Shown: in pieces, positions 34,468-52,841 of the stretch
Layout: every line of letters starts with the position of its first letter
Numbering within the stretch: position 1 is the first letter of the stretch
Source of the DNA: a virus
Taxonomy: Duplodnaviria > Caudoviricetes
Reading direction: 5' to 3' (one strand)
DNA: 52,841 nt
Virus record (IMG/VR): IMGVR_UViG_3300008255_000162
Coordinates: 1 to 52,841 of that record
Notes under the pieces: model-generated
What the model was told of the DNA's origin: nothing
Databases searched by the model: none
What the model saw: only the letters and a program-made list of their open reading frames with translations
Program-made: the position numbers and the translations under genes

Positions 34468-35463
34468 CTACTCCTCGCTCCGGTTGGGGTCGTGCTCGCC
34501 GCGCTCGATTGCGCCGGCGATGTCAGCGGCGGTCACGCGCATCTGGTCCTTCGGGATCTGGAACCCAGGACATGCGCGTAGCCACGTCATGATCCGAGCC
34601 TCAGCCTGATCGGCAGTGTCAACGGCAATGGACAGGTGTCGCATCTCGACCGACATCTCGTCGATCACGATCCGAAGTCGCAGCACCTCACGCGCAAGCG
34701 TAGGTACCAGCACCATCACGTGTGCATCCTCGCGGCACGTGACCCGTGCCACAGTCCCTTCGCCGTTTTGGTCGAGAACTTCAGCCTCGTAGTGTCCGAG
34801 AGCACCGAGCATCCACTCGACCCGACTTGCCTCTTCTGGAGGTGAGTAGTCGCCGCGATCCTCGACGGTCCAGTTGAGGGCGAGTAGACTCTGAAGCCTC
34901 TCGATGGTCAGGTCAGTCACTGGCTCGACGACCGGTTGTGTCGAAGGCGTGTCGAATGCGAGACGGAAACTCAGGTCGTCGCCGCGGAGGGAAGGAACGT
35001 CCCTGTCGCGGAGGGCGACCCGCACAAGCGACGGGTCGTCGTACCAACCGCCGCCGCGGAGGACCCGAAGGGGACTCGCGATATCTGCGATCCAGCAGTA
35101 CGCAACTCCGAACAGATCGCGCACACCGTCCGCGTTGGGCGGGCACGGCGAGGTGCCCACGTCCGGCAGCTCTACCAGTGGCCACTCGTGGAAGTCGTGT
35201 GCGGGTACTGACTTCTCTACCGCGATCAGGTCAGCCTCGGTAGGTAGGTGGCCGCCGACCCATCGGCAGTAGGCGTCTGCGTCGTACCAGTCTACGGTCA
35301 CAACGGGTTGTTGCGGGCGTCCCTTGACCGTGCGCAGGTCGTTGCGGTTGGTGGTTCGGCAGAACGCTTCCCACTGCTCACACGTTACGAAGTCGGTCAG
35401 GTGCAACACGGTTCGCCTCCTTGTAGGATCTAACGGTTTCGACATTCGATCGAAGATCACCAC
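34468..35463 (-). CDS. FGE-sulfatase / C-type-lectin-fold protein with internal DGR-type variable region and C-terminal extension
   Basis: VT..QW..F, PVV.V.W.DA.AYCRW.GG.LPTEA, N..GV.DL.G, RVLRGGGW...SFRLA motifs. Confidence 0.85.
   Translation of the reverse strand: MVIFDRMSKPLDPTRRRTVLHLTDFVTCEQWEAFCRTTNRNDLRTVKGRPQQPVVTVDWYDADAYCRWVGGHLPTEADLIAVEKSVPAHDFHEWPLVELPDVGTSPCPPNADGVRDLFGVAYCWIADIASPLRVLRGGGWYDDPSLVRVALRDRDVPSLRGDDLSFRLAFDTPSTQPVVEPVTDLTIERLQSLLALNWTVEDRGDYSPPEEASRVEWMLGALGHYEAEVLDQNGEGTVARVTCREDAHVMVLVPTLAREVLRLRIVIDEMSVEMRHLSIAVDTADQAEARIMTWLRACPGFQIPKDQMRVTAADIAGAIERGEHDPNRSEE
34951..35067 (-). repeat. DGR-like variable repeat VR1
   Basis: 92/117 nt identical to 49480-49596; mismatches concentrated at codon positions 1-2 of NNC codons. 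Confidence 0.75.
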
Positions 35464-35467
35464 CTGA

Positions 35468-37990
35468 CTATCGCGCCCACTTCACGCCCCAACGAAGTTG
35501 AGGCTTGGCATCTGCATTGTATGGCATCCCTCGTCCGTTGAGTCGACGGCGAGACATGCACACGGTAAGTGCTTCGATCCACTCCTCGATCTCGAAGACT
35601 GAAACCTCTAAGAGTAGGGCGTCGTGTGCTTGGTTGACGACACCAACTCGCTCTTGGAAGTCGAAAGCAAACGGACGAACGATCGTAGACTTGTCCAGGC
35701 GTTCTGTTGCAAAGATGTACCGCTGCGCCCCCATGAGATCCATCGTGGCCTCGTGGACGAGAGCGGAGCCGCCAGCTTGAATCGGAGGATTGACCAGCTT
35801 CGACCGCTCTGCACCACCGGGATAATACCGCTTGCGCCCCCACAGTGGATCCTCGACGTACCCGTGATCGTTGTAGAAGTCTTCAATATGATCCCACCAT
35901 CGCGGTATGTGAGGGAACGCCTTCGCTCTGGCTCTCATTGCATCGCGTATAACATCGATCGGACGTGTTGCATAGGGATAAGAGACGATTCCCGTCTTAT
36001 TATCCCTGACGGATACGCGCGACACTTGGTCGCGTACGGTCTTCAGCCCGGCTCCGTACTGCCAGGCATACCCCACGTTCTTGACGATCCCACGTGCATC
36101 ATCGAAGTCGGAGCCCTCCGTCGCTTTCCCCCTCCGGTCGGATGGCGCACCGGATAGGTCCCACACCTCGGGTCCGTATGTGAGTTCCATGGACTCGTTG
36201 TGAAGATCCAACCCGTCTAGGACCATCTGGATTACAATGTCTTCACCAGCTTCCTCACTGATCAGACGCAACTCCAGTTGCGACTCATCGGCGTAGACGA
36301 AGCAATGTCCTTCCTCCGGGACATATATACGTCGTACGAAATAGGGTTGGTTCTGGAAGTTGGGATCACTGGAGTTGTACCTCCCTGATGATGGTAGGCG
36401 ATTGTAAGAAGCATGTACCCTGCCATCACGTCCGACCAGCGTACCATCAAGAATCCCCTTCAAGTAGGTTCCGCGCAGCTTGCCATACTCTCGACAGTCG
36501 AGGACGCCGCGAATCAGCATCTCTTGATCCGCATCCAATATGTCGGAGACCAACCACGTCCGAAGCGACTTCTCGTCGGCGGATTCATTCCCCGTCTTTG
36601 CACTGAAACTGACCGCCGGGAGATTCCATTGATCAAAGAATAGCTTCTGTAGCTGCGGGTGACTGTTGGGATTCAATCCCGGTCGTACCTTGTGAACATT
36701 GGCGAGTGCCAACGCCTCAGACGCCGCAAGCTCCCTGTCCAGCTTCCGCGCTTCGTCGATGTCTACCCTGATCCCCAACTGTTGCATACTAACACCGAAC
36801 TGATGCAACCAGTTTTCTTGCGGTTCAAGGTGAGGCGACCCCCGCGTCTTTAGCGACTCGCGAAGACTCTTGTGTACTGAGATGCCGGTCGCAATGTCGT
36901 CTCCATTGTACGACCAAAGCTCAATGTCGGATTGTGTATTCAGCGCAACGTGATCCGCCTTCCAGGCATCTAGCATTGGAGTACGCCATGCTGCTAGGAA
37001 ACCTAAACGATGACGTAAACCATCCCCAAGAAGGAGATGCTCGATCAGTGTGTCATGTTTGAATAGGAAATCCATTCCGTATCGTAGGAGAACCTGACGG
37101 TCGTAATGGTTTGCGTTGTGCCCAATAAGACGATGAGCATTCTTCAGAATCCACGTGCAGACTGCATCGAACAGTGCCTTGTCATTCAGTCCCCATAGTG
37201 CATGACCCTTCACCGATCGGTATGGAATAATGGCAGCGAACTTCTCGTTGCCGATACCGATGCAACGCAGTCGGCAAGTCATTGGATCCTTACCGTCTGT
37301 TTCTACATCAAGTTCCAGTTCCTCGTCAGGATCCCACTGAGCACAGGCGTAGTCGAAGCTACGCACATTCTTGACTATCAGCTTCTTTGGCTTCAGCGGT
37401 TCGAGCTTCTTGGTGAACCAGTCGATTCCCTTCTGTATTCCATCTCGAAACACCTCCGGCCATTCAGGAGTGCGCAACACGAACGCAGGATGCACGGAAT
37501 AGAAATACTTGACTCCGTTCCGTTCCTCCCCGCATCCGTGCATTGCCATGATCGACGTTTGCTTTCCGCGAACAGCCGATGCAGCCTCCCCCCCCATGAC
37601 CAACACATGCCGGAATCCTTCCAGATCCCGAAGCATCCGACCGCGACAGGCATCAATCGGATCGCGCAGACCCCTGCCCTTTGCCCATGTGCGGATGATA
37701 CCCAACTGGTCTTCGGGTGGTCGGCACGCTGCCGCATTTAAGATACGCACGTTCTTCCGCTTGACGTGTGCTGCCTCTAATGCGGGCTGAAGTACCTCCT
37801 GCCCGCACTTGCCACAGAAGTTCCGACCCTCGATTGTCTCCGTACGACCAGGAGTTTCCCCCAACAGTGCGATCTTGTCGTCTATGTGACACGTAACCAA
37901 CACAGGGATAGGCTCACGCTCCTCAACCTTGTTGTACCACGCGCGCAAGGCGCAATGTTCACAGTCGGCACCAGTTGGGGGTTGGAACAT
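35468..37990 (-). CDS. polA: Family A DNA polymerase with N-terminal family-4 uracil-DNA-glycosylase-like domain (SPO1-like)
   Basis: UDG: CxxC, GETPG..E, NA..CRP, HPAFVLR; exonuclease: DVET, HNA.YD, YN.DD; polymerase motifs A DESQLELR, B RGIVKNVGYAWQYG, C AHDAL. Confidence 0.95.
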   Translation of the reverse strand: MFQPPTGADCEHCALRAWYNKVEEREPIPVLVTCHIDDKIALLGETPGRTETIEGRNFCGKCGQEVLQPALEAAHVKRKNVRILNAAACRPPEDQLGIIRTWAKGRGLRDPIDACRGRMLRDLEGFRHVLVMGGEAASAVRGKQTSIMAMHGCGEERNGVKYFYSVHPAFVLRTPEWPEVFRDGIQKGIDWFTKKLEPLKPKKLIVKNVRSFDYACAQWDPDEELELDVETDGKDPMTCRLRCIGIGNEKFAAIIPYRSVKGHALWGLNDKALFDAVCTWILKNAHRLIGHNANHYDRQVLLRYGMDFLFKHDTLIEHLLLGDGLRHRLGFLAAWRTPMLDAWKADHVALNTQSDIELWSYNGDDIATGISVHKSLRESLKTRGSPHLEPQENWLHQFGVSMQQLGIRVDIDEARKLDRELAASEALALANVHKVRPGLNPNSHPQLQKLFFDQWNLPAVSFSAKTGNESADEKSLRTWLVSDILDADQEMLIRGVLDCREYGKLRGTYLKGILDGTLVGRDGRVHASYNRLPSSGRYNSSDPNFQNQPYFVRRIYVPEEGHCFVYADESQLELRLISEEAGEDIVIQMVLDGLDLHNESMELTYGPEVWDLSGAPSDRRGKATEGSDFDDARGIVKNVGYAWQYGAGLKTVRDQVSRVSVRDNKTGIVSYPYATRPIDVIRDAMRARAKAFPHIPRWWDHIEDFYNDHGYVEDPLWGRKRYYPGGAERSKLVNPPIQAGGSALVHEATMDLMGAQRYIFATERLDKSTIVRPFAFDFQERVGVVNQAHDALLLEVSVFEIEEWIEALTVCMSRRRLNGRGMPYNADAKPQLRWGVKWAR

Positions 37991-38102
37991 TACGGCTTAC
38001 TCGCCCCGAGAGTTCGATCGTCGTAGGACAAACCATTGTAGTACACCGGGGGACCGACCCGCCGGCGTTCTAACTCAGCGATGCGCTCGGAGTCGGTAGG
38101 CA

Positions 38103-38477
38103 CTATTCCCCTCCGATTGCGATCTGTTGGAGCTGATGCAGTCGTCTCTCCGCGATTTTGAGGCGTTTCCGCAGCATCTTGACGTGGTATGCACGCTTCG
38201 CGATAGCTCGCTGCACGGCAGATTCTTTCGTGCGCTGTGCGAACCTGGATACCAGCCTGACCCATTTCGGCGGGTCCTGCACATGACCGCCGGGGTACCG
38301 CTGAATCCAAGCGCCTGCCGAAGTGACTCGCGTCACAGTCCATTCCTCGCATCGAACATTCGCGTGGGAGTATCTCCGCCCCATCCATTCTCCAGAAAGG
38401 TCGAACTCCCCTCGGTAGACCGCCGCATCGACTACACGGTATAGCACCTGCCCCAGGACGTACGGATCGGTAGGCAT
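38103..38477 (-). CDS. Hypothetical protein
   Basis: 124 aa; GAGGGG RBS. Confidence 0.65.
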   Translation of the reverse strand: MPTDPYVLGQVLYRVVDAAVYRGEFDLSGEWMGRRYSHANVRCEEWTVTRVTSAGAWIQRYPGGHVQDPPKWVRLVSRFAQRTKESAVQRAIAKRAYHVKMLRKRLKIAERRLHQLQQIAIGGE

Positions 38478-38480
38478 GAC

Positions 38481-38684
38481 TTACCCCCTCGCGCCTGTAG
38501 AGGGACGAGACAGGATGACGATCTTGTCGTACTGTGCGATGTGTTCGAGACGGAAGAAGTACCCGGACGGGAACAGCACGGCCTGGACGATCAGGCGTGC
38601 GAGATGCGACTTGCCGCTCCCCGGTGCTCCACGGATCTCGATGGTCATGATCGGGCGGCCGTCTTCGTTCTTGACACGCATCAC
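38481..38684 (-). CDS. Small protein with P-loop-like motif
   Basis: IEIRGAPGSGKS in 67 aa; overlaps the upstream stop. Confidence 0.55.
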   Translation of the reverse strand: MMRVKNEDGRPIMTIEIRGAPGSGKSHLARLIVQAVLFPSGYFFRLEHIAQYDKIVILSRPSTGARG

Positions 38685-38914
38685 AGCACCACCACTTCAG
38701 CCGAGTTGGCTGCACTGAAGTCTCCGCGTTCGTCCCAGGTCACGTCGTTGACGATCCAGTCGATCGCCTGACCTACACTCAGACTGAGGAGCTTCCTCTC
38801 GTTGTGGTAGAGTGTGACTTCCAGTGAAGAGAGTTTGACCTCGCCGTCTTCGTACCCACGAAGGCCGTCCGCGATGTCTTGAAGTAGCCTGTTTGCATGT
38901 CGATAGTAGTTCAT
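38681..38914 (-). CDS. Hypothetical protein
   Basis: 77 aa; GGGAG RBS. Confidence 0.6.
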   Translation of the reverse strand: MNYYRHANRLLQDIADGLRGYEDGEVKLSSLEVTLYHNERKLLSLSVGQAIDWIVNDVTWDERGDFSAANSAEVVVL

Positions 38915-39172
38915 CTTATTTCTCCCTGATGGGTCGGGGCATCGAGTTAGCTGTCTACCTTCGATTCCGATTATATCGGTTGCCCCGTTATTCTTCTCGG
39001 TCGAGCCGAGTGCTGTTCAGTCTGCGATGTAACCGGGTGGAGTCACCCTCATCTTCTTCACTCCGGGGTGCAAACCGCCCGGTTGCCTATTGCCGGACGG
39101 ATTGCGGGGGAGAGATGGGGAGTACCGACCGTGATGATGGAATCGGTCGGCACCCCCCACCCCCGGTACCGA

Positions 39173-39748
39173 CTAAGTGTCCAGGAACGCCAGGGCGTTG
39201 TCGTCGGCGTCATCGTCGGAGTCGGTGTCGTCGGTGGACTCGACCTCCGGTTCGATCTCGGCGTCGGGGTCGGGCTCCGGGGTCTTCGTTTTCGTCGCCG
39301 TCTTGGTCGGCTTGACCGGCTTCTCTTCCGGCGTGACCTCGATGTCGTCGTCGTCGGTGTTGTCGCTGTTGGAGATCGCCTTCTCGTACTGCGACTTGGT
39401 CAGCCACGAGAAGTGGGGGAACCCTCCCTCCTCGCTCGGCGGGGCATAGTCGAAGTACACGGAGCGCTTGGCATCGATCAGCTTCTTCGCGAGCTTTTCG
39501 GGATCGACCCGCTTCTTCAGTGCCTCCTTGGGATAGCCGCCGCTGACGAACATCGCCATCAGGTACGGCGCTCCAGAGGGCATCGAGAAGCCCTCTCCAA
39601 CCAGACCCTCAGGGGTCGAGATCGAGAACTGGTAGCGATCCTTCTCGGCCTTGTAGGTACACCCGACCATGATCCCCTTCTTCGGACCCTTGGTCAGAAC
39701 GACGTAGCCCTGCGCGGGCTCGGTGTTGGTGAAATCGACGGTGGGCAT
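39173..39748 (-). CDS. Putative single-stranded DNA-binding protein
   Basis: ATG at 39748 after GGAGG; long acidic tail ending AFLDT; follows the Sak4-like ATPase and exonuclease. Confidence 0.6.
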   Translation of the reverse strand: MPTVDFTNTEPAQGYVVLTKGPKKGIMVGCTYKAEKDRYQFSISTPEGLVGEGFSMPSGAPYLMAMFVSGGYPKEALKKRVDPEKLAKKLIDAKRSVYFDYAPPSEEGGFPHFSWLTKSQYEKAISNSDNTDDDDIEVTPEEKPVKPTKTATKTKTPEPDPDAEIEPEVESTDDTDSDDDADDNALAFLDT

Positions 39749-39824
39749 GACCCATCCTCCTTGTTGGTTGTTCCCCCTTTGACTTTTGACCTTCCAACCG
39801 GGGGGAGTCGGAGGTGTACTGAAA

Positions 39825-40709
39825 TCAGATGTCGGCCAACCCACCGATCAGTCGGTTGACCCAGTTGTCGGCGTCGCTCGCAAAGTACGTGCGCGCGTAC
39901 CCGGTGAAGAGAGCGTACCCGATTCGGCCGCGCGCTCCTTTGTGATCCTTCGCGAGCTTAGCGGCCCACGACTTGAACACGTCCTCCTGTTCAGGATTCT
40001 CATTCAAGTCCTGCATGATCTGATCCGCAACCTTGTCGATCCAGGTCAGGTCTGCCGGCCAAGCGATCTCGTAGCCCTGAGCACGTAGGAGTTCTCCCAG
40101 GTGTCCGGGGCATACAGGAGTTCCAACTGCACCGCGGTCCCGTGCAATGAAGTCGTCGCTGGTTCCGAAGTCGATCCAGTATTTCCAGAACAGTTTGCCC
40201 TCGACCGGAACCATTCGCCCGATCGCTTGCATCAACCCCGCGAAATCCTCCGCAGAGTTTCCGCTGATCTTGGGGCCTCCCCGCCGGAGTCGGATTCCGA
40301 AGTTGGGCTTCTCGGGATCGTCCTGGAACTTCATCGCGCGTTCGTGAACGATGATTACGACGTGCCCTCCGGCTTCGTTGACCTTCACGCACGCGCGCCC
40401 GAGCGCGCCCACGATGTCAGCGATCTTGTTCAGCTTCGTGTACCCTATGACTCCCGAGGTATCGTCGTCGATCATGTAGTTCAGGTCGTCGATCAGGTAG
40501 AAGGGCACTCCGGGCTTCAGCGCAGCCGTGACCTTTCGAGCTGAATGTACGACCGCCCTTCGTGCGTCGAACCCGAAGATCCGACGAGCGGGGTCCGCAC
40601 CATCTTCATTGTAGAGAAAGGCAACCCCTCCTGACCCGACCAGGGTTGCTCCCGCAGTTGTCTTCCCGCTACCCGGGGGAGAGTACAAACAGATCGTCTT
40701 GCCCTTCAC
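39825..40709 (-). CDS. AAA_24 / Sak4-like ATPase (recombination)
   Basis: LYSPPGSGKTT, LIDDL, IIVHE, PKISG, ARDR motifs. Confidence 0.75.
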   Translation of the reverse strand: MKGKTICLYSPPGSGKTTAGATLVGSGGVAFLYNEDGADPARRIFGFDARRAVVHSARKVTAALKPGVPFYLIDDLNYMIDDDTSGVIGYTKLNKIADIVGALGRACVKVNEAGGHVVIIVHERAMKFQDDPEKPNFGIRLRRGGPKISGNSAEDFAGLMQAIGRMVPVEGKLFWKYWIDFGTSDDFIARDRGAVGTPVCPGHLGELLRAQGYEIAWPADLTWIDKVADQIMQDLNENPEQEDVFKSWAAKLAKDHKGARGRIGYALFTGYARTYFASDADNWVNRLIGGLADI

Positions 40710-41581
40710 TTGTCACCTCGAAATGGAAGCATCCCGGTCAGGCAGTACCCGACAAGATCACACGGACGATACCGATCGCGACACGTGTGCTGTGTGAACG
40801 ACGCCGGCTGTTTCTGCCAGGGTAGATGCGCGAGAGAATCGCGCAGGTCGTCCCAGAACGAGAGTGTTGCGATCGCATCTTCTACGGCTTGGTCAGCATC
40901 GGGAAGCGGGTCGAATGCAGTGGCCCTCTCCCGATTATTTCCGGTATACCGTTTGTTCACTCGCCCGATGATGACGCCGCCGAAGTTCTCTTTCCAGAGT
41001 ATCTTTCCGAACAGCCGGTACAGAATCATCTGAATATCTGCCACGTACTGATCGAGAGTCTGCCCACTAATCTCGAAAGCTGTCTTGTGATCGAGAATCC
41101 AGTACCGACCGTATGGATCACGCATTACGAGATCCGCGCGTCCGGTAAGTAGCCGCGCCTTTCCATGCGACTTGACCTTGAACCGGTACTCCTTCTCGAT
41201 TGCTATGATCGTCCACTTGCCGTAGTAGTCCTGCCATGCTGGTAGGTAGAATCCAAGCCATCGACGGCAGTCGTCATAGCCCTTCTGCGCGGGTCGCTTC
41301 CCCACCTCTTCGATCGAGAGGTGAGCTTTCAGCCGCATCGCCTCTTGACCGGGCATGACATCTACGCCGGCGAGGCGAGCCAGGTCGTGCGCAATGCCGA
41401 GATGGAACAGGCCACCCGCGTACAGCGCCTGTGCTGAAATCGTGATCACACCTGCGCGTGCTGCGGCAGCCTTCCGAAGGCACAGCATATCCATAGCGTA
41501 GCCGTGACTTCCCCGTTCGGATGGCCCCGGGTCGATCAACCCGTTCGGCCCGACTGTTACCTCGCAGTGCACTTTACCCAT
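40706..41581 (-). CDS. PD-(D/E)XK (RecB/Cas4-like) exonuclease
   Basis: G..FH, IEKE, GRADLV, LDHKT, Q...Y and C-terminal Cys cluster; ATG at 41581 after AGGTGA. Confidence 0.85.
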   Translation of the reverse strand: MGKVHCEVTVGPNGLIDPGPSERGSHGYAMDMLCLRKAAAARAGVITISAQALYAGGLFHLGIAHDLARLAGVDVMPGQEAMRLKAHLSIEEVGKRPAQKGYDDCRRWLGFYLPAWQDYYGKWTIIAIEKEYRFKVKSHGKARLLTGRADLVMRDPYGRYWILDHKTAFEISGQTLDQYVADIQMILYRLFGKILWKENFGGVIIGRVNKRYTGNNRERATAFDPLPDADQAVEDAIATLSFWDDLRDSLAHLPWQKQPASFTQHTCRDRYRPCDLVGYCLTGMLPFRGDK

Positions 41582-41606
41582 TTCACCTAACCGTTTAACT
41601 GTAAGC

Positions 41607-41635
41607 AGTTTAGCCGGATGGCCCACTGCTGTCAA
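41607..41635 (-). promoter_or_regulatory. Sigma70-type promoter for the recombination operon
   Basis: Minus strand TTGACA-17 nt-TAAACT. Confidence 0.7.
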
Positions 41636-41646
41636 GTGCGTACGGA

Positions 41647-41868
41647 TTACTTCTTGAAGTCAGCTTTCCGCATGAGTAGGTCGAGAATCGGATGAGAATC
41701 CATCGCCCTCTCTGAAAGCCGACGAGTGAAATCCTGCGACATCTCGTCGTCTCTTCTCGTACCGGTCGGTAAATCAGCCGTCATGCCGACAACGATGCAG
41801 CCGACCACGAACAGTACCAGGGGGGTGGGGGGCCGTTCGGCCCACGGATCACGGATTGCTCGTGTCAC
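41647..41868 (-). CDS. Small membrane protein
   Basis: One hydrophobic segment; GGAGG upstream. Confidence 0.55.
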   Translation of the reverse strand: MTRAIRDPWAERPPTPLVLFVVGCIVVGMTADLPTGTRRDDEMSQDFTRRLSERAMDSHPILDLLMRKADFKK

Positions 41869-42556
41869 CTTGCACCTCCGGTTCCTTCGTGGCGAGATGC
41901 GCTACGTGTTCCAGGTCGAGAAGCGGATCGACTTCAACCAGAAGACCGGTCAGAAGTCGCGCGAGGTCCTCTTCGCTATGCTCTCCGATGTCCCGCACAC
42001 CGTTGCACAAGCGCGCGATGACCGCACCGAGCGAGTCGAGAGGGATCCGGTAGCCGCGTTGGTAGAACTTGAGTACACGAAGCATCGACCCACCGGCATC
42101 CTCGTTGCGAGCGGGACTCGTGTAGATCAGGCGCTTCGCGGCGAGGTCGGCGTAGTAGGTGGGATCGCAGATCCCGATCCACTTGTCACCGTTGAACCAG
42201 ATCGCCGCCTTGGCGATGGTGAAGTCGAATGATTCGACCGCCTGGTACGGCGTGTCGAACGTCCACCTGTGGATGACCTGAACCGGCGGACGGAAATCGA
42301 TCGTAGAGGCGTTCGCGGTCTTGTAAACGCGCTTCCCCGCGGCCAGTTCGTTCACCAGCGCGTGTGCGTCTTCTTCTGATGCGACCAAGATGTCGATGTC
42401 GTTGACCGACTCGTTCGTGATCGCACACCGGATGAATCCACCTGCGATGAACGTGCGACTCGGGCGGGATTCGAGAGCCAGTCGGACGGCGCGAGGGAGG
42501 CGCCGAATGGCCCAGGAGATATCGCGCCAGTGTAGAGTTTCCATTTCGGATGTCAT
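41849..42556 (-). CDS. Poly(A)-polymerase/CCA-adding-type nucleotidyltransferase (head domain)
   Basis: FIAGGFIR, NDIDI, FDFTIAK, R.LKF..RGY motifs; start at 42556 lies inside the 38-bp repeat. Confidence 0.8.
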   Translation of the reverse strand: MTSEMETLHWRDISWAIRRLPRAVRLALESRPSRTFIAGGFIRCAITNESVNDIDILVASEEDAHALVNELAAGKRVYKTANASTIDFRPPVQVIHRWTFDTPYQAVESFDFTIAKAAIWFNGDKWIGICDPTYYADLAAKRLIYTSPARNEDAGGSMLRVLKFYQRGYRIPLDSLGAVIARLCNGVRDIGEHSEEDLARLLTGLLVEVDPLLDLEHVAHLATKEPEVQGDTSNP

Positions 42557-42579
42557 GACTTCTTTCCTCTCATGAGTTG
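42542..42579 (-). repeat. 38-bp direct repeat, copy 1 (RBS + MTSEM start)
   Basis: CATTTCGGATGTCATGACTTCTTTCCTCTCATGAGTTG, identical to 43057-43094. Confidence 0.95.
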
Positions 42580-42582
42580 CGC

Positions 42583-43071
42583 TCAGTGTTTTCCATTCTT
42601 TCTGTAGACCTTGAAGGTCTTCATGGTATGTCCCATCGCCGTATCGTACAGCCCCGTGAACTCGATGCGGAGAGTCTCTCCGATATTGATCTCGGAGGTC
42701 TCGACCGTATCGATCAGTTGCGTTCCCGTGACGTAGAAAGTTTCTTCCTCGACATGTAGGAGCACACGGGAATACTCTCCGTACATGCCCTCGGCTACGC
42801 GAAGCCCTCCGAACACACCAGTCAGGCATTCCCCCGATGTGCGCGGATTCCATGCACGGGGGGCCTTTACTTCCGACCAGTTGGATGCGCCCGTCTTCTC
42901 AACGTGTCGGATTTTGCCCTTCGCTGCGGCGAGGGCATTCCTCACGTTCGCGTAGCTTCGCGAGGTCTGGATCTCTTCTCCGTCCTTGCTCGCCGTGTAC
43001 GACACGCGGCCACTCTCGGTGAGGAAGCACTTGATCGTCCAGCTACGGTATTCGTGCATTTCGGATGTCAT
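42583..43071 (-). CDS. Hypothetical protein with putative OB-fold ssDNA-binding C-terminal domain
   Basis: WNP...GE.L.G...G.YG...IGE.LRI.F.G.....G..MK.FKV pattern typical of phage OB-fold proteins. Confidence 0.6.
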   Translation of the reverse strand: MTSEMHEYRSWTIKCFLTESGRVSYTASKDGEEIQTSRSYANVRNALAAAKGKIRHVEKTGASNWSEVKAPRAWNPRTSGECLTGVFGGLRVAEGMYGEYSRVLLHVEEETFYVTGTQLIDTVETSEINIGETLRIEFTGLYDTAMGHTMKTFKVYRKNGKH

Positions 43072-43094
43072 GACTTCTTTCCTCTCATGAGTTG
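43057..43094 (-). repeat. 38-bp direct repeat, copy 2
   Basis: Identical to 42542-42579. Confidence 0.95.
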
Positions 43095-43169
43095 TGCGTA
43101 GTCGTCCAGGATGAACTGCCTTCCACTCAAGTAGTCACGTTTCCCGCGTGTTCTGACTCATCATCTGCT

Positions 43170-43550
43170 CTAAGGAATGAGAGAGTCAATCTCTTCAAAC
43201 GTAGGGAATATTCCCTCGAACCTGAAGCCGCGGTCGTCGATATAAAGATGCGCGTACGGTTTGCCGGCGCCGGTCCACCAGTCGAGTTGATTCACGACTT
43301 GGTAGGAGAATCCGTTACTGATCATCCACTGCCGGAGAGCACCGATGATCACGAACGGATTGGGGGTACGCACACCCTCGAACGTGCCTTGCTGAAGTCG
43401 TGCTGTGTGTACGATCACGTCGTAATGGATGACCGCCTTCGCGAGGAAGTTGATTACACCGAGAACGGGCGAGCCCTCCAGTGTCGTGACTCCAAGCCAT
43501 TCCCCGCCGTAGATCACGCCGTCGAAGTCGATGGCCAGGACCCTTCTCAC
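43170..43550 (-). CDS. HAD-superfamily phosphatase
   Basis: IDFDGVI, HTAR, GKP...YIDDR motifs. Confidence 0.85.
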   Translation of the reverse strand: MRRVLAIDFDGVIYGGEWLGVTTLEGSPVLGVINFLAKAVIHYDVIVHTARLQQGTFEGVRTPNPFVIIGALRQWMISNGFSYQVVNQLDWWTGAGKPYAHLYIDDRGFRFEGIFPTFEEIDSLIP

Positions 43551-45271
43551 ACTGCTCTCCTTGCCGTTTCGACGAGTCGCCTCAGCATGTCGGACTGACT
43601 CCGAGTACCTGAAAGAGCCTGCTCGATCGCTGCGGCCTCTTCATCACCGACCACCTCTGCGACAGTCGGTAGCTTGTCCAGCAGCGACTCGTGAATGATC
43701 TCTTCCACGCTGCCTCGAATGAGCGGATACCGCACGAGTACCGGGCGGGTTTGTCCGAGCCTGCTTACACGTCCTTCCCATTGAATAATATGCCGGGGCG
43801 TCCATGGCAACATGACGACGTAAAGAATATCAGTGTCCTGCAAGTTCAGATACTCACCCCAAGCGTACCCGGTCCCCACGAGAATACATCCCCCTCTGTG
43901 ATCCATATAGGCGTGTCGAATCCTTGTACGTTCCTGACTCGGTGTAGACCCATGAGCCATCCAGACTGGAACCTGAGAGCTTACCGCGCTGACCTTCTTT
44001 GCAATCTCTTCCCCCAGGCGTTCGCAGTCTTCCACCCGCCCGGTGAACACCAGCACCTTTGCTCCTCCGAGGGCATCGCGCACCGCGTTTTGCACCGTCC
44101 AGCTTCGCTTACGGCTGGCCGTCTCGCAGACGGCGGCCTCTGTAATGGACTGCTCGTCTCCAGAGCGCACAGCGGCACGGCGAGCCTGTGTAGCCTCCCG
44201 ACTCGCCCCGTTCAACTCGACGGGGGACAACCAGATCAACTGCCGGCGCTTTGGAGGTAGCGCGGCGTTGATGACCGAAGCGGGAACCGTCTTGACCAGC
44301 GTAGCCAATCGCTTGTTCAGTTGCCGCGTGTTCGATCGTCCCTCATAGCGGAACCCGTAACCGTCATGCTCTCCCGCGCAGTAATGCAGACCGAATCCGT
44401 GCTTGTTCCCCCAAGCCATCGGTTCGAGCAGGTCAAGCTGAGCGAAGAGATCGATCAGCAGGTTGCTGATCGGAGTAGCCGTGAGTTCAAGCCGGTTGCT
44501 TGCATTGCGCGCAAGCACCATAGTCGCCGCCGTGCGTGTCTCTTTCAGACGGTAGTCGGTTTCTCCGTCCTCATCGACTACCTCCGTCCACCGTGACGGG
44601 TTCTTCGCGTAATGCGTTTCGTCGAATGTGATGGCGAAGGGCGCGAGATTCTCACTGATCCACGCCCACCACCCCAGATAGAAATCGCCACGACTGCCAG
44701 GATGTAATGTCTCCCAACCGACGAGATACACAGTCGGATGCTCAACCGGGCGTACTTCTACATTCGGGAGCCATGCGCCTGACCGCTTTCGCACCGCGCC
44801 TCGAACGCCTTCGAGTACGACGGTATCGAACGCAGTGCACTGACGTATCTCCTCCCGCCAAGTGTCGATTGCACCGCCCGGGACGGCGACTACCATCCGT
44901 CGTCCGCTCATCCACAAACGGAGAAGCTGCACAAGCGCGACGACAGTCTTTCCACCGCCAGGTTTGATCCAAGTTGCCCACGACGGAACCGAAGACATAC
45001 CGGCAACGATGTCTGCCTGGTAGTCCTTCAGTTCCCACGGCGCGGACCAGTGTGCCGACTTATCCAACATGCGGCGCAGTCGGTCACGATCGAAAGCCGG
45101 TGGTCTCCAACCCCCCACCCCTGGTACTACACCGGAAAGGTTCTTTGGTACTTTCCAGATTCTCCCCCACTTACGGACGCCCGGAATCGACTGAAACCGA
45201 GCGTCCAGTTCTCGAAGGAAGTTCCAGTTTCTTCTGTCTTCTGGTCCCTCGAAAGGGACTTTGATCGGCAT
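43547..45271 (-). CDS. SF2 (SNF2-like) DNA helicase
   Basis: YQ, PGGGKT, FDETH, LTATP, Q.EGRVSRLGQ motifs. Confidence 0.9.
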   Translation of the reverse strand: MPIKVPFEGPEDRRNWNFLRELDARFQSIPGVRKWGRIWKVPKNLSGVVPGVGGWRPPAFDRDRLRRMLDKSAHWSAPWELKDYQADIVAGMSSVPSWATWIKPGGGKTVVALVQLLRLWMSGRRMVVAVPGGAIDTWREEIRQCTAFDTVVLEGVRGAVRKRSGAWLPNVEVRPVEHPTVYLVGWETLHPGSRGDFYLGWWAWISENLAPFAITFDETHYAKNPSRWTEVVDEDGETDYRLKETRTAATMVLARNASNRLELTATPISNLLIDLFAQLDLLEPMAWGNKHGFGLHYCAGEHDGYGFRYEGRSNTRQLNKRLATLVKTVPASVINAALPPKRRQLIWLSPVELNGASREATQARRAAVRSGDEQSITEAAVCETASRKRSWTVQNAVRDALGGAKVLVFTGRVEDCERLGEEIAKKVSAVSSQVPVWMAHGSTPSQERTRIRHAYMDHRGGCILVGTGYAWGEYLNLQDTDILYVVMLPWTPRHIIQWEGRVSRLGQTRPVLVRYPLIRGSVEEIIHESLLDKLPTVAEVVGDEEAAAIEQALSGTRSQSDMLRRLVETARRAV

Positions 45272-45280
45272 GCAGACCTC

Positions 45281-46144
45281 TCAGGATTTCGGGGCCGACT
45301 TCCTGGCGGGTCCTTCGGATCCGACTCGCTTCATCAGGGCTTCGGCCAGCCAATCGGCAATCATGCTGGTGTCCCGCAGGTACCCGACCCCCTCGACGGT
45401 CAGGCCGGGAGCGGCCTTGAACACATCGGCCACCGCTCGATTGACGACAGTGGGATCCTTGGTGTGAATCCCCGTCCGCCGAAAGAACGGCCGGCTAGTC
45501 AGGAACTCGACCGCCTTCTTGGCTTCAGGCGTCTGCCCGGCGGACAGGTCGATGGTGGAATCCGACTCCTCCAACCCTGACTCGTCGGCGGGCGGCCTGA
45601 ACGACTGGATCATCCTTGCTTCTCTCGAACCCGGAGCTTGAATGGACTCTCCGAGTTCTTCAGGCGCACCGTCCGACTTGTCTGAGTCGGTCGGCTTCAG
45701 GGCGTTCTCGGCGGCCTTGCGCCGATCGGCTGCCAGCGTCTCGCGCGTGACTGCCGGTTCGATCCTGAGTTCCTTGACGATGGCGTTGTACGCGGTCGTT
45801 CCCTTCTTCGGCCTGTAACCGGCGTGCGTACGCCCGGTCGGGTCCTTGATGATGATGATCTTGTCACCGTTGTACGCGTACTCATAGCCGCCGAATCCCT
45901 TCTTCGTCTGATATCCCTCGGGAGTCTCATACCCACGAGGTTCGGGAGACGAGTCGTCGGTACCAGGGGTGGGGGGCTCCTCACCGTCCCCCCAGGCTGC
46001 CCGCTGTTTCTCGACCTCCTGCACGGCCGGTTTGACCCGGGTGGTGTCGAGATCGAACGGACGAGATCCTCCCGACCGGCGGATCTTCCCCTCGTTGCGG
46101 GCTCGCACGGCGGCCTCCTTCAGTGCTTTGTAGTCTTGACTCAT
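45281..46144 (-). CDS. Hypothetical protein (287 aa)
   Basis: AAGGAGG RBS; strongly biased codons; own promoter candidate. Confidence 0.75.
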   Translation of the reverse strand: MSQDYKALKEAAVRARNEGKIRRSGGSRPFDLDTTRVKPAVQEVEKQRAAWGDGEEPPTPGTDDSSPEPRGYETPEGYQTKKGFGGYEYAYNGDKIIIIKDPTGRTHAGYRPKKGTTAYNAIVKELRIEPAVTRETLAADRRKAAENALKPTDSDKSDGAPEELGESIQAPGSREARMIQSFRPPADESGLEESDSTIDLSAGQTPEAKKAVEFLTSRPFFRRTGIHTKDPTVVNRAVADVFKAAPGLTVEGVGYLRDTSMIADWLAEALMKRVGSEGPARKSAPKS

Positions 46145-46162
46145 CGGTACCTCCTTTCTCGA

Positions 46163-46191
46163 AATCTACCCTACGCGTTGTCGTTTGTCCA
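46163..46191 (-). promoter_or_regulatory. Sigma70-type promoter candidate
   Basis: Minus strand TGGACA-17 nt-TAGATT. Confidence 0.5.
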
Positions 46192-46298
46192 GAGCGCTTC
46201 GGCGCTTCCCCCCATAGTAGCTGAAGAATGGGTGCATCATCTCACCGTATACGTGTGTGTTACGATCTTCACATACGACCCAACGTAGTGCAGAACGG

Positions 46299-48425
46299 TC
46301 ACTCTCTCGATCTCCGTCCGATCGCAATCCCGGACCACCAGATCCCGTCTGCCTTTCGAGGAAGTTGAGTCACACCACGGTCGGATAGGGCTTCCTTGAA
46401 GCGCCGGTTCGACCACGGATTCTCCCTTCGGTTGGTCGCCCACTCCTTGTACGCATCGTATATCTCAGCGGCCTTGCACTTCTGGTCGCCACCGAGACGG
46501 CAACAATCGGAAATGAAGGATCCGATGATGTCTTGCGATTCACGGTACGCTAAGGTCGCGGCGTCGACCAAGTCGAACTTGGGCAACCTGCTCGCATACC
46601 ATGCCACCGCGCCGCGAACCATCCAGGCGAGGATACCTTGACCCTCCGCAAGCAGCTTGGCCTGTAGGTCATCGTCCTTCTTCTCGGGAGGAATCGTGAC
46701 CGTGAAGGGAAGCAACTTGATCCGACGCCAGATCGCCAGGTCCGTCCCCATGATCTCCGGGCGATGATTGGACGAGAGCCATATCTTACCAGTCGGGCGG
46801 AACTCAAAGAACTCCTTGTATAGGAACCGAGCGGGTACCGTGTCCTGTCCGGTGAGCTGCTTCACGACCTGCTCGTCGAGGCGTCCTCTAGCTTTGCCCT
46901 CAGACGCAACGACGAACCGCGCACCGACCAACCTCGCCAGGTCGTTGCGCGGTCCATCGTTGCGTGTTTCCATGAACGAGTTGAAGTCCGCCTGTCGGGC
47001 GTAGTCGGCCATGACATGGCGTACGACTTCGAGGAACGTGCTCTTTCCGTTCTGGCCTGTTCCATGCATGAGAAACATGACCTGTTCGGATGTCTCACCT
47101 GTCAGGCTGTACCCGAGCGCGACTTGAAGGAAGCGCGCGTACTCCTTGTCGCCATTCAGAATCTCGCTCAGGAACTTTCCCCACAGTGGACACTTGGCTT
47201 GTGGGTTGTAGGCGACCGGGGACTGATTCGTGATCAGGAGGTCGCGATTGTGAGGGTACAACTTCCCGTTTCGCAGATCGACGAGCCCGTTGCTACAACC
47301 GAACAGATGCAAGTCTTGGTCGAGATCGCTGGCCACGACCGGCACACCCACTTCGGTCTCGGCCACTCGCACCATCGCGGACAGAGCGCCGGCGGACTCC
47401 GACTTAGAAGCCCACTTACGCATGGCCTTGGCAAGATCGGTGTCGGTCACGTGTGCAGCATGATCTTTGATCATACCCGGAACGGTCTTGGCGAAGCGAT
47501 GGATCTCTCCGTCTTCGTCCCCCACCCACCTGGTACCGTCCCAGATCAGCCAACGCTGAGCAGACACGTTGAATCGAATGCGACCGCCGAACACACGGAC
47601 CAAGCGGCGCGCATTGCCGAGGTCACTGAGCGGCGCGAAGTTCGCATCGTATCCAGCCATCGACTGCGCGATGGCTACGATTTCATCCTCTGCCAAGGGG
47701 GGGTCACACAACCGCGTATTGACCGCGAGTAGCACCTCCTCGATCAGCTCAGGTCCGGCACCGCGCCCGCGGAGCCAACCGCCTATCTTGGCAAGTTCGC
47801 TGTTGCGAGCGCCGGAGGGAATGATCTCGGATAGGTCGGTCGTCGCGTCGAGATAGACATCCTCTCTCGCCTTGCGAGACAGCGCGTCGAGGAGCCACTG
47901 TGGAATGTCCGCGAGTTGGGTCGGATCTCCTCGAAGGGTCGTGTACTTCTGCCCGCTACGATGAAGCGTCGGGGGCGCGACCGCGATGTTGCCGGTCGAG
48001 AGGAACTCGATTCCCGACCATGGTTTGCACGCCCGAGGCATCTCCATGCCGTTCGGTACGTTGAACCAGAAGTGTGCGCCGCCCCCTCCGGTTTGTACCA
48101 GGTGGGTGGGGGGGAACTTCCCATACTGATCAGTGAGTTCTCGAAGCGACTTGAACCCCCCCGACTTCTTGTCAACATCCAGCACGACGATTCGACTGTC
48201 CTTTCCTGGAGCAACGCCGATCCCCGCATTGGGAAACGACCGCCACCAATCACGGATAGTCGTCTCGTCACGTGTTGCCGATTTCCACCCGCCCTGCACG
48301 CGCGGATGCTTGGCTGCGTGCCCACAGTCTTTGCCGGCCGCGCAAGCGCAGCGGTCGCCTTTCCACTCGAATAGCGGAACGACTGCAACTCCAGCCTTGG
48401 CGAGGGCCAATGCAGCGCGGAGCAT
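46299..48425 (-). CDS. Bifunctional primase-polymerase fused to PriCT, D5_N and P4-family SF3 helicase
   Basis: KHP, LDVD, TGGGG.H, VAPPTLH.SG..Y (primpol); GARN; DLGNARR; GTGQNGKST, VKQLTG.D...AR, AIWRRI. Confidence 0.95.
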   Translation of the reverse strand: MLRAALALAKAGVAVVPLFEWKGDRCACAAGKDCGHAAKHPRVQGGWKSATRDETTIRDWWRSFPNAGIGVAPGKDSRIVVLDVDKKSGGFKSLRELTDQYGKFPPTHLVQTGGGGAHFWFNVPNGMEMPRACKPWSGIEFLSTGNIAVAPPTLHRSGQKYTTLRGDPTQLADIPQWLLDALSRKAREDVYLDATTDLSEIIPSGARNSELAKIGGWLRGRGAGPELIEEVLLAVNTRLCDPPLAEDEIVAIAQSMAGYDANFAPLSDLGNARRLVRVFGGRIRFNVSAQRWLIWDGTRWVGDEDGEIHRFAKTVPGMIKDHAAHVTDTDLAKAMRKWASKSESAGALSAMVRVAETEVGVPVVASDLDQDLHLFGCSNGLVDLRNGKLYPHNRDLLITNQSPVAYNPQAKCPLWGKFLSEILNGDKEYARFLQVALGYSLTGETSEQVMFLMHGTGQNGKSTFLEVVRHVMADYARQADFNSFMETRNDGPRNDLARLVGARFVVASEGKARGRLDEQVVKQLTGQDTVPARFLYKEFFEFRPTGKIWLSSNHRPEIMGTDLAIWRRIKLLPFTVTIPPEKKDDDLQAKLLAEGQGILAWMVRGAVAWYASRLPKFDLVDAATLAYRESQDIIGSFISDCCRLGGDQKCKAAEIYDAYKEWATNRRENPWSNRRFKEALSDRGVTQLPRKADGIWWSGIAIGRRSRE

Positions 48426-48427
48426 GA

Positions 48428-48640
48428 CTACTCCGCGATGATGTTGTACAGTTCTTCGGGCTCAGTGTAGATGCGCATGAAGGCGCTTTGGTACTTGACC
48501 CCCACGGCGCGCACGAGCGTATCGATCGCTTGAGACCGGTCGATCCCGAATGCACGTTGGATCACGTCTAGTGTTTCCATGGCAGTTCGAGACAGTCTGA
48601 CTGTAGCCTGCTTGTCTCTGACTTCTTCACTGTTAGACAT
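48428..48640 (-). CDS. Small DNA-binding protein (ribbon-helix-helix-like)
   Basis: TVRLS....E.LD.I....GI.RSQAI..LV pattern; GGAG RBS; sits between array B and the primase. Confidence 0.6.
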   Translation of the reverse strand: MSNSEEVRDKQATVRLSRTAMETLDVIQRAFGIDRSQAIDTLVRAVGVKYQSAFMRIYTEPEELYNIIAE

Positions 48641-48688
48641 TGCTATCTCCCGTTGGGTACTGTAACACGGCGTTGAATGGACGGCCAG

Positions 48689-48844
48689 TGTAGCCGAGAT
48701 GTAGCCGTGCGATCGTCGAAAGCGAGCGTTGAATGCCGCATACTCGAAGAATGTACCCGTATGTAGCCACCGAGAGAGGAGTCCTTCAGTATATACTCTG
48801 ATCCGATCTATTAAACAATACCAGACGGCTACACTACACTACAC
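48689..48844. repeat. Iteron-like array B, homologous to array A
   Basis: TGTAGCC x3 and TGTACCC, then TATTAAACAATA, then GGCTACACTACACTACA, as at 2686-2766. Confidence 0.75.
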
Positions 48845-49270
48845 TGCCACGAGGTCATTCCAGGCGTCCTCATAGTCGCGCGCGTCTACCCTCCAGAGTA
48901 TACAGTAGTTGTACAGTACGGCGCGTTGCAGCGACTCGGGAAGCTCGTCGAACATGATGCGACGACCGAGAATGGCGTGCATCCTTCCATACGCCGGGGG
49001 CCATCGCCTTCCACAGTTGCCCCTATAGACATCAGTATCAATCGAGACTGCACCGTGATACAGTTTAGACGCGCAAGTCGCATCTAAAGAATACTGGTCG
49101 TACCTCGTGTGTGGGACTTCCACACCGAAAGAATAGTCATTCCGCATCCTATCTTTCTTGTACGCTCCGGTATAGACCACTGTGTAACAATGGTCGTTTC
49201 GGTACACGCGTACCCATCGAGGGCACCCGGTTGGAAGCAGTCGCGCTCGACGCTCATCCGTGTCTTTCAT
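48839..49270 (-). CDS. Hypothetical protein
   Basis: 143 aa; GGAGG upstream. Confidence 0.65.
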   Translation of the reverse strand: MKDTDERRARLLPTGCPRWVRVYRNDHCYTVVYTGAYKKDRMRNDYSFGVEVPHTRYDQYSLDATCASKLYHGAVSIDTDVYRGNCGRRWPPAYGRMHAILGRRIMFDELPESLQRAVLYNYCILWRVDARDYEDAWNDLVAV

Positions 49271-49473
49271 TCACCTGTCCTCCGTAAGTGATCAATATAG
49301 CGATCAAACTCGACCGTTCCTGTACGGAACTCCAAGTAATCTGCGTTCGCATCGACGATTGCGACCTTGTTCTGATACGGCAGTGCACCTGCCACGAACT
49401 TCATGGCGTCCAGCAATGACTGTTCCTTCTGTATGAAAGCAGTTTCCTCAATGTATACTGTGTTGGCATTGCA

Positions 49474-49935
49474 CTACCTGTCGAACGCAAGGCGGAAACC
49501 CAGGAAGAAGTCGCGGCGGGAAGGATCGATCCAGTTGCGGAGGGCGACCCGCACCCACGACGGGTCGCTGTTCCAGCCGCCGCCGCGGCAGACGCGGTCG
49601 GTACCTGAAGTGGTACTCGTCCACTGATGCACGAAACCGATCAGTCCGTATATTCCATCCGCGGTCACGATCTCCTCGTGAGAGTCGACTTCCGGTAGAA
49701 TATCAAGGGGCCAAGTCGAGAAGTTGGGTTCTCTACTCCACACTTCATGCTTGATCAGCTCCTCCTCTGAGGGGAGCCGGCCGTTTACGAATGCTGCGTA
49801 CAGCATCGAGTCGTTCCAAGACACGTTGACGACCGGACAACGCGGGTGGTGTCCGTGGTCGTCAGGCGTCTCCAATCCTGCCCACGTCAGGAAGTATTCG
49901 TACTCTTCTACTGTGACCAGATATGGCGATAACAT
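49474..49935 (-). CDS. FGE-sulfatase / C-type-lectin-fold protein with C-terminal DGR-type variable region
   Basis: VT.EEY..F, PVVNVSWND, RLPSEEE, GIYGL.G.V.QW, RVCRGGGW...GFRLA. Confidence 0.85.
   Translation of the reverse strand: MLSPYLVTVEEYEYFLTWAGLETPDDHGHHPRCPVVNVSWNDSMLYAAFVNGRLPSEEELIKHEVWSREPNFSTWPLDILPEVDSHEEIVTADGIYGLIGFVHQWTSTTSGTDRVCRGGGWNSDPSWVRVALRNWIDPSRRDFFLGFRLAFDR
49480..49596 (-). repeat. DGR-like variable repeat VR2
   Basis: Homologous to 34951-35067, with an NNC-type mismatch pattern. Confidence 0.75.
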
Positions 49936-50248: not shown

Positions 50249-50623
50249 CTACTTCCCCTTGTCTTTGACCAGAATGGTCAGTGTGTCTCTTTGTTCTTCT
50301 TCTTCGTACCAGGTAGATATCTTATCCCCGTTGCTGAATGAAACCGACTTCCTTTCTCTATCGGCAATCCACATGGGCCGGTATGCGCCCGAGTGGTGAC
50401 GGAACGCGCCGGACCACTTTTCCACTTCGCGTTGGTCGGGCAACCGCATTTCATACCAAGCGGCCATGAGCATTGCGTCCGACCAAGATATCCGCGCCTC
50501 GCTGCCTACTCTCTCCTGACTCCGAATAGGCTCTCGAAGAGTCTCGGCGCAGTAATCCTCGAAGTCTTCGACCGTGATCGGTCCGAGGATATGCAATCTG
50601 GGTCGGCTTCTGCACCTACTCAT
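50249..50623 (-). CDS. Degenerate FGE-sulfatase-like paralog lacking the variable region
   Basis: ITVEDFEDY...ISWSDAM..AAW...RLPDQRE; ATG at 50623 overlaps the upstream stop. Confidence 0.55.
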   Translation of the reverse strand: MSRCRSRPRLHILGPITVEDFEDYCAETLREPIRSQERVGSEARISWSDAMLMAAWYEMRLPDQREVEKWSGAFRHHSGAYRPMWIADRERKSVSFSNGDKISTWYEEEEQRDTLTILVKDKGK

Positions 50624-50919
50624 CGAGGTCTTCTTCGCTGACCAGGAGTAGATTCCTCGACCGCACCGAGAGGGTCTATGACCGTCATCGGTACATCCGA
50701 GAATATCGGCCTCGCCAACCACTCGAATAGTACGGTAGCGTCCATGAACTCAGTCACGAACTGCCTGTGATTGCTCCCATCCATATGGAATACGGCGATT
50801 GCACCCGGGCCAGCATTAAGTAGAATCTCGATAGACCTGACCTCTGCGCTGTACCGCCGGATCCAGGATAGATTGTTTACCGAATGGTAGTTACCCGCTA
50901 TGTCATACCAACCATTCAT
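50620..50919 (-). CDS. Hypothetical protein
   Basis: 99 aa; ATGA-coupled on both sides. Confidence 0.65.
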   Translation of the reverse strand: MNGWYDIAGNYHSVNNLSWIRRYSAEVRSIEILLNAGPGAIAVFHMDGSNHRQFVTEFMDATVLFEWLARPIFSDVPMTVIDPLGAVEESTPGQRRRPR

Positions 50920-52840: not shown

Positions 52841-52841
52841 G

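Follow-up and report, generated by a model that had tools for sequence, protein, structure and literature searches.

The 52,841-nt window analyzed here, which is the whole of IMG/VR virus record IMGVR_UViG_3300008255_000162 (class "linear"; GC 58.6%), carries two paralogous genes of the FGE-sulfatase/C-type lectin (CLec) type that share one short block of sequence. The question raised by this locus is whether a diversity-generating retroelement (DGR) wrote that block into both genes from a single template repeat (TR), each copy being a variable region (VR), and where the template and its reverse transcriptase (RT) would then lie. Comparison of the two copies, read against genuine DGRs, makes it very probable that both blocks stem from a DGR and one common template. 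The two genes and their blocks are as follows.

34468..35463, minus strand: target gene A (P0001), FGE-sulfatase/CLec (PF03781, E=1.5e-16, 61.3 bits)
34951..35067, minus strand: VR-like block A, internal to gene A, P0001 codons 133 to 171 (core codons 134 to 166, 34966-35064)
49474..49935, minus strand: target gene B (P0002, 153 aa), made up of the FGE-sulfatase/CLec domain alone, whose C-terminal end holds the block (PF03781, E=3.2e-14, 53.6 bits)
49480..49596, minus strand: VR-like block B, C-terminal end of gene B, P0002 codons 114 to 152 (core 49495-49593)

The block is the window's longest direct-repeat family, as identified by a repeat search. An earlier account of this DNA, made from its letters alone (the sequence-only reading), had described the mismatches between the two copies, and its counts were all reproduced. 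The copies align without gaps and are identical at 92 of 117 positions; 19 of the 25 mismatches fall at codon positions 1 and 2 (10, 9, and 6 at positions 1, 2, and 3, respectively), and 9 of the 13 amino-acid changes exchange one NNC codon for another. Over block codons 15 to 34 (P0001 codons 147 to 166) there are 12 differences at the first two positions and none at the third. Neither copy is the template of the other: of the 25 mismatches, only 7 carry A in one copy and 6 in the other. Within the core the bias is sharper, with mismatches distributed as 10, 9, and 2 over the three codon positions and with 13 nonsynonymous codons versus 1 synonymous codon; 6 of the 13 are altered at both of the first two positions.

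Codon usage shows that the block and the genes that carry it differ in age. In the core, 18 of the 19 identical residues other than methionine and tryptophan share the same codon, where 5.39 would be expected from the codon usage of the phage (Poisson-binomial P=5.7e-10). Upstream of the block, codons are shared by 13 of 31 identical residues, against an expectation of 11.57 (P=0.35). This chance-level sharing indicates that the synonymous sites upstream are saturated and that the duplication is old; the paralogs are thus old and the block is young. At most one or two differences in the core are not attributable to template adenines, over 78 invariant columns and 19 comparable codons, and this scarcity of synonymous decay places the last rewriting within a few percent divergence.

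The base composition of the block points the same way. Adenine occupies 4 of the 92 invariant columns, whereas among the 143 identical columns upstream it is found in 23 (Fisher P=0.006), and it makes up 13 of the 50 letters at the mismatch columns (P=0.0003). Transitions and transversions (ts:tv) stand at 9:12 in the core versus 39:10 for the differences found in contigs of sequencing run X1 (Fisher P=0.004), a tally that includes some foreign contigs. A two-parameter fit with approximately 34 template adenines, each retained with probability 0.34, yields the 25 mismatches and the 4 columns with a shared A; having two parameters fitted to two counts, it is exact by construction and speaks only for the plausibility of the values. 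The same fit predicts approximately 5 hidden columns, in which both copies drew the same non-A base, among the 88 invariant columns that lack A.

In the mechanism suggested by these patterns, an error-prone reverse transcriptase would copy the RNA of the TR and misread its adenines, and the resulting cDNA would take the place of a stretch of about 100 nt in both CLec paralogs. Template positions other than adenine would stay identical in both genes. The roughly 34 template adenines would be randomized independently in each, concentrated in 13 codons, of which 7 reconstruct to AAC.

Calibration on control loci

Controls were obtained by scanning a genome contig collection with the short homolog P0029, which gave 80 cellular FGE loci that were then compared with themselves by BLAST. 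This flagged 10 of the 80 loci. Eight of them hold 10 clean TR/VR pairs, recognized by A standing at 89 to 100% of the mismatches in one of the two copies; the other two (L050 and L056) show mixed patterns and were set aside. Two control loci, L073 and L079, each contain one TR and two VRs, and their VRs were compared with each other by the measures applied to the window pair.

L073, VR1 versus VR2: identity 86%; position-3 mismatches 0; same/synonymous codons 30/0; NNC/NNC changes 10; ts:tv 6:12; A in invariant columns 12%
L079, VR1 versus VR2: identity 83%; position-3 mismatches 1; same/synonymous codons 28/1; NNC/NNC changes 9; ts:tv 11:12; A in invariant columns 7%
Window, block A versus block B: identity 79%; position-3 mismatches 2; same/synonymous codons 18/1; NNC/NNC changes 9; ts:tv 9:12; A in invariant columns 4%

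At the columns where VR1 and VR2 differ, the template has A in 17 of 18 cases for L073 and in 23 of 23 for L079. The translations of the control TRs place asparagine at fixed positions relative to the landmarks RGG-W, R, P, and GFR, and the spacing is that of the window blocks. When the window blocks were laid by eye, without an alignment program, against these translations, 11 of the 13 variable codons fell on Asn (AAC) positions of the control TRs, and the other two adjoin such positions. The agreement with the controls, indirect in that the template is a reconstruction, and the coincidence with AAC positions of genuine templates bear out the proposal of the sequence-only reading that both blocks show the signature of a single adenine-rich template acting by mutagenic retrohoming. 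The locus shows that a comparison of VR with VR can reveal DGR activity where no template is at hand, with yardsticks calibrated on genuine systems of one TR and two VRs.

Where the template and reverse transcriptase may lie

Neither a TR nor an RT or Avd is present in the window, as had been noted earlier and as profile searches, blastn, a position-wise scan, and the reading of motifs in open reading frames (ORFs) now confirm. The profile RVT_1 (PF00078) gave no match at E<=1 in the six frames of the 52,841 nt, in a record that is a fragment; the phage may carry an RT elsewhere. The same profile matched all five control genomes tested, within the locus range itself for L080 and L101, and it would thus have caught a DGR RT. 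No Y/F-x-DD motif in a plausible context occurs in the greedy ORFs of at least 150 aa in the window. Avd, which accompanies 74% of DGRs in the survey data of Wu et al. cited here (PMC5758913), was sought with NF033474 and PF05635 at E<=1, and no match was found in the window. The 143-aa ORF downstream of target gene B matched no family, nor did NCBIfam assign a family to any of 12 unassigned ORFs of the window.

Searches for a further copy of the block were equally negative. Within the window, blastn at E<=10 returned only the two blocks, and the best other site in a position-wise scan of both strands agreed at 47 of the 92 invariant positions. An 18-nt A-free stretch common to both blocks had no match in the viral contig collection. 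A 30-nt pattern with 27 specified bases had none in the genome contig collection, in which groundwater hosts may be unrepresented; given approximately 5 hidden template adenines, an exact 27-base probe is roughly estimated to match the true TR only about one time in six. A profile of the two VR peptides was run against 5.8 billion proteins (the "longer" class), and none of the 161 candidates scored exceeded 58% identity apart from the phage's own clusters. A scan of metagenome contigs, near-identical records excepted, with the last gene of the window returned two unrelated short loci only.

The record is a fragment and not a whole genome. Proteins like P0001 occur on three contigs, of 52,841, 56,720, and 67,716 nt, and P0002 is also present on the longest of these. 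A gene leaves the right end of the record, with its last 49 codons at 52691..52840 on the minus strand (ORF list), and is found in full on the 67,716-nt contig as the 285-aa P0187. In addition, a Logan contig in run X1 extends 666 nt beyond position 52841. The longer contigs and the gene crossing the right end imply that between 0.7 and approximately 15 kb of adjoining DNA is unseen, which could hold the cassette; a TR plus an RT fits in less than 2 kb.

For these reasons, and because non-adjacent targets of phage DGRs are known (PMC5758913, in the part cited here), we tentatively place the cassette (TR, RT, and perhaps Avd) in that part of the phage's own genome which the record does not cover. 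The locus would then be a multi-target phage DGR with non-adjacent, non-structural targets. The sequence-only reading had called the DGR orphan or trans-targeted, which is not supported as stated: the same proteins occur on longer contigs (56,720 and 67,716 nt), a gene runs across the right end, and the fragmentary record does not establish either condition.

Strain variation was followed through the assembled contigs of four runs, which drop minority variants, and the differences considered are the 41 listed out of 80. In run X1 (depth of approximately 18), one contig spans 33000-42571 with 10 differences, including 35061 G>A. This single C/T transition changes L135 to F in block A, at a predicted variable codon. 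It also occurs in a contig of run X2 and is the sole difference from P0001 in the 313-aa proteins of the 56,720- and 67,716-nt contigs. The chance that one of 10 single-nucleotide polymorphisms in 9,572 nt falls on the 25 mismatch columns is 0.026, which makes this single variant suggestive at most. In block B, the X1 contig covering 48531-50811 shows no difference among those listed. The contig data neither show nor exclude ongoing diversification.

Other observations from run X1 concern neighboring positions. At 48428-48560, two alternative 133-nt contigs (depths of 7.3 and 10.8) differ at 10 sites over approximately 75 nt, and 7 of these fall at third codon positions of the ORF at 48428-48640 (minus strand); this patch is a strain mosaic and is not adenine specific. 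One foreign contig, a weak lead, matches the window up to 35061, at the 5' edge of block A, and continues into GC-rich sequence unlike the window. Another foreign match begins only at 35223, in the N-terminal motif, and one X1 contig fits two places of the window. The foreign contigs could derive from another FGE gene or from a sibling VR or TR.

Several points weigh against a DGR whose cassette lies outside the record. No TR was seen, and a DGR is defined by a VR that differs from its TR only at TR adenines. P0001 codons 139 and 146 differ at the third position, which calls for template codons ending in A, an unusual feature. No hypervariation appears in the contigs of the four runs among the differences listed, contigs being unable to show minority variants. 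CheckV rates the record as 96% complete, in which case only approximately 2 kb would be missing, and P0187, the sole gene known past the right end, is not an RT and has no Pfam or NCBIfam family. Phage DGRs lacking an adjacent cassette are rare, with two cases in the part of Wu et al. cited here (PMC5758913).

The last of these points concerns target recognition. DGR target elements, as described in the passages of Guo et al. (2011, PMC3240598) used here, comprise an initiation of mutagenic homing (IMH) site with a GC-only stretch and, 4 to 34 bp downstream, a GC-rich hairpin with a 4-nt GRNA loop. No GC-rich GRNA-loop hairpin of the BPP-1 type was found after either block, nor was an IMH. Perfect stems of at least 6 bp are absent within approximately 120 nt after either block, and folding energies there are no better than those of shuffled sequences (z=+1.07 and -0.27). 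Such stems are likewise absent after 8 of the 10 genuine control VRs, and for this reason the missing hairpin does not discriminate here.

One alternative, which we consider unlikely, is that a DGR of this lineage wrote both blocks and that its TR/RT cassette has since been deleted, leaving fossil or orphan VRs that are now fixed alleles. It would fit a record that is rated nearly complete and holds no cassette, an absent target-recognition hairpin, and the listed strain differences, by which VR-B is identical in the X1 contig and VR-A differs by one C/T change. DGR surveys that start from the RT seek targets nearby and miss remote ones (Roux et al. 2021, PMC8144416, in the part cited here); such pipelines are blind to orphans, and the rarity of orphans in print is no evidence against them. 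The near absence of non-adenine differences in the core would, however, demand a recent loss, no older than a few percent divergence. The record, moreover, is demonstrably not the whole genome, and the only strain variant in the 117 nt falls on a predicted variable column, at the low chance given above.

Distinctly unlikely, in our view, is a complete phage genome lacking RT and TR, in which a DGR on another replicon (host chromosome, prophage, or a co-infecting or satellite element) rewrites both genes during infection. Inside one cell, the components of a DGR do work in trans: Avd, TR, and RT have been expressed from a plasmid (PMC5758913), and in Thiohalocapsa PB-PSB1 a different locus diversifies the incomplete ones (PMC10907252), as far as the cited parts of these papers go. 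An unrelated viral contig, G003, likewise carries five VR-like modules and lacks both an A-rich copy and an RVT_1 match, but it is only 24% complete. The literature gave no precedent for phage targets that depend on a foreign cassette, and no phage with VRs and a complete, cassette-free genome was found in a search that was not thorough; supplementary tables (such as Table S1 of Wu et al.) may list cases of this sort. Wu et al. expect, in the passage cited, that phages have no remote targets, since these would not be inherited together (PMC5758913). As to the foreign X1 contig that departs from the window at 35061, it may simply be another FGE gene, a similar partial match being present at 35223.

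Should the full genome prove to lack the cassette, this would be the first case known to us of a phage relying on a foreign DGR. If the rewriting does come from another replicon, the phage would be borrowing a repertoire of hypervariable intracellular binders, for example against host defense proteins, and G003 would be a second case. The present interest of the locus is moderate, and it would be high if the full genome lacks the cassette.

The weakest explanation, highly improbable, dispenses with a retroelement and has a short gene-conversion tract homogenize the paralogs before strong diversifying selection on 13 binding-site codons: the unseen TR and RT agree with it, non-synonymous change falls on positions 1 and 2 by nature, and the variable positions are also the least conserved ones in non-DGR enzymes such as EgtB and in short homologs, but it needs 19 substitutions at positions 1 and 2 in 13 codons (6 of them doubly hit) versus at most one or two in about 19 synonymous opportunities, and it leaves unexplained the deficit of A at invariant columns with its excess at variable ones, a ts:tv near 1:1.3, the codon-for-codon match to AAC in real templates, and the near-identity with the VR1/VR2 controls. 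A small share of the probability goes to none of these four readings.

The target proteins and their genomic setting

Both target proteins score above the curated cutoff of PF03781 (23.3 bits), with best stretches that are only partial (positions 62-117 and 42-118 of a domain of approximately 255 positions); the proteins are half the usual size. The longest ORF of P0001 encodes 331 aa, and recorded gene calls start at codon 19 or 20, giving 312 to 313 aa. Its FGE-sulfatase/CLec domain (aa 25-172) is followed by a 160-aa C-terminal part for which no Pfam match and no usable Atlas match was found. P0001 and P0002 are 41% identical over 147 aa without gaps. A HMMER search of 1.84 billion representative proteins returned 5,492 FGE relatives, with a top identity of 45%.

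A profile of P0002 and its relatives matches the Treponema denticola protein TvpA (2y3c) exactly at the block (E=8e-15), and EgtB and the formylglycine-generating enzyme (FGE) are also among the matches in the PDB. The block is the most conserved motif of the whole family, where EgtB and FGE align too, and protein identity over it consequently means little. Both window proteins presumably lack the catalytic residues of the formylglycine-generating enzyme, which include a cysteine pair. An AlphaFold2 model built from a 9-row alignment has a mean predicted local distance difference test (pLDDT) score of 61.9, with the block below 50 and residues 111-140 at 35 to 48, values too low to be informative on the block. 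Judged by eye, neither translation has an N-terminal hydrophobic stretch.

The phage DGR targets known so far are for the most part structural, tail proteins among them. The targets described here are unusual in being small non-structural proteins with no evident signal peptide, encoded beside a DNA polymerase and a primase. Both most likely act inside the cell as binding proteins whose ligand face varies. Under active diversification they would be candidate variable intracellular binders, possibly for counter-defense, although the assignment of such a role to either of them is speculation.

The earlier placement of both genes in the minus-strand replication arm, with PolA, a SNF2 helicase, and a Prim-Pol/D5 primase, stands. 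Target gene A lies 4 nt downstream of the gene for PolA with a uracil-DNA glycosylase (UDG) superfamily domain. The layout of the window around the two genes is as follows.

Up to approximately 27.8 kb, plus strand: packaging and structural arm, with a Mom-like gene, large terminase, virion protein, and a 1,938-aa ORF
27.8-52.4 kb, minus strand: replication arm, with Eco57I-like methylase, PolA with UDG-superfamily domain, AAA_24, exonuclease, SNF2 helicase, Prim-Pol/D5 primase, and RNase H
35468..37990, minus strand: family A DNA polymerase with N-terminal UDG-superfamily domain, a single 840-aa ORF directly upstream of target gene A (PF00476, E=4e-29; PF03167, E=6e-12)
50249..50722, minus strand: third, degenerate FGE-like paralog (P0164, 157 aa; PF03781 six-frame E=0.0015; hmmscan E=0.02, under the cutoff)

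The third paralog lies two genes upstream of target gene B and retains only the motif of the N-terminal half, without the variable block. A Mom-like DNA modification gene (4168-4782, plus strand) overlaps the start of the large terminase gene, and an Eco57I-type methylase (28528-29922, minus strand) is found within the replication arm; given these two genes, modification of the phage DNA is a possibility. Near both genome ends, at 2718-2766 and 48795-48843, there is a 49-nt direct repeat (82% identity), which is also seen as a 35-nt joint and as loose ends in two runs. A 46-nt repeat (93%) flanks a divergent junction, at 42542-42587 and 43057-43102. Both repeats are probably regulatory sites.

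DNA of the phage is contained in groundwater and aquifer metagenomes. Scanning the window with Rfam and for tRNAs gave nothing and hence no clue to the host. Among GenBank phages (megablast and tblastn), neither the locus nor P0002 had a match, and PolA matched at less than 25% identity. The viral contig collection (IMG/VR) holds no close relatives of P0002, PolA, or P0157, in scans of the collections that took in no near-identical records of this phage. A primase search of viral contigs recovered one distant phage only, with 29% identity and neither FGE nor RT.

The nearest nucleotide relatives of block B (72 to 74%) are modules of G003, a 105.5-kb viral contig. This contig has five VR-like CLec modules (L013 = G003:24712-28161; L007:811-924), none of them A-rich. 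Two of the modules differ by 21 mismatches, distributed as 9, 10, and 2 over codon positions 1, 2, and 3, with 33 same, 2 synonymous, and 14 non-synonymous codons; one FGE frame contains two in-frame TGA codons. No RVT_1 match was found in the FGE-bearing viral contigs G001 to G003, which are only 24 to 34% complete and allow no conclusion.

Comparison with known retroelements

The closest parallels are the phage-associated DGRs of Wu et al. (2018), whose non-adjacent targets, in the part of that paper cited here, are found no farther than about 50 kb off in the same prophage; for two of them the sole target is a non-adjacent one at a distance of 20 kb (PMC5758913). As in the arrangement proposed for the window, several targets, kilobases away from the RT, depend on one TR, and the predominant VR class is FGE-sulfatase/CLec (PMC5758913). 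The window differs from these systems in showing no RT or TR, in having its targets among replication and not tail genes, and in the gene-internal position of one VR, which is the rarer layout (PMC5758913).

TvpA of Treponema denticola shares with the window proteins the FGE-type CLec fold and, with P0002, the C-terminal placement of the VR. As a surface lipoprotein, TvpA is unlike the window proteins, which by eye lack an N-terminal hydrophobic stretch. The T. denticola DGR has seven non-adjacent targets (PMC5758913, in the part cited here); in contrast with the window, it is cellular and chromosomal, and its RT and TR are known.

In Thiohalocapsa sp. PB-PSB1, as in the window, there are targets without an RT or TR of their own; the VRs match a TR elsewhere at every site other than adenines, and some are active and one is static (PMC10907252, in the part cited here). 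There, a single bacterial genome holds all the parts and the TR is known (PMC10907252), whereas the carrier here is a phage.

Mtd of Bordetella phage BPP-1 is, like the window proteins, a phage-borne binding protein with a CLec fold (PMC3240598). BPP-1 differs in having one structural tail-fiber target beside avd-TR-brt, an IMH that contains a (GC)14 element, and a GRNA-loop hairpin (PMC3240598). For BPP-1 homing, the passages of this study cited here indicate that 3' target elements and short 5' homology suffice, so that a second homologous gene can be a target (PMC3240598).

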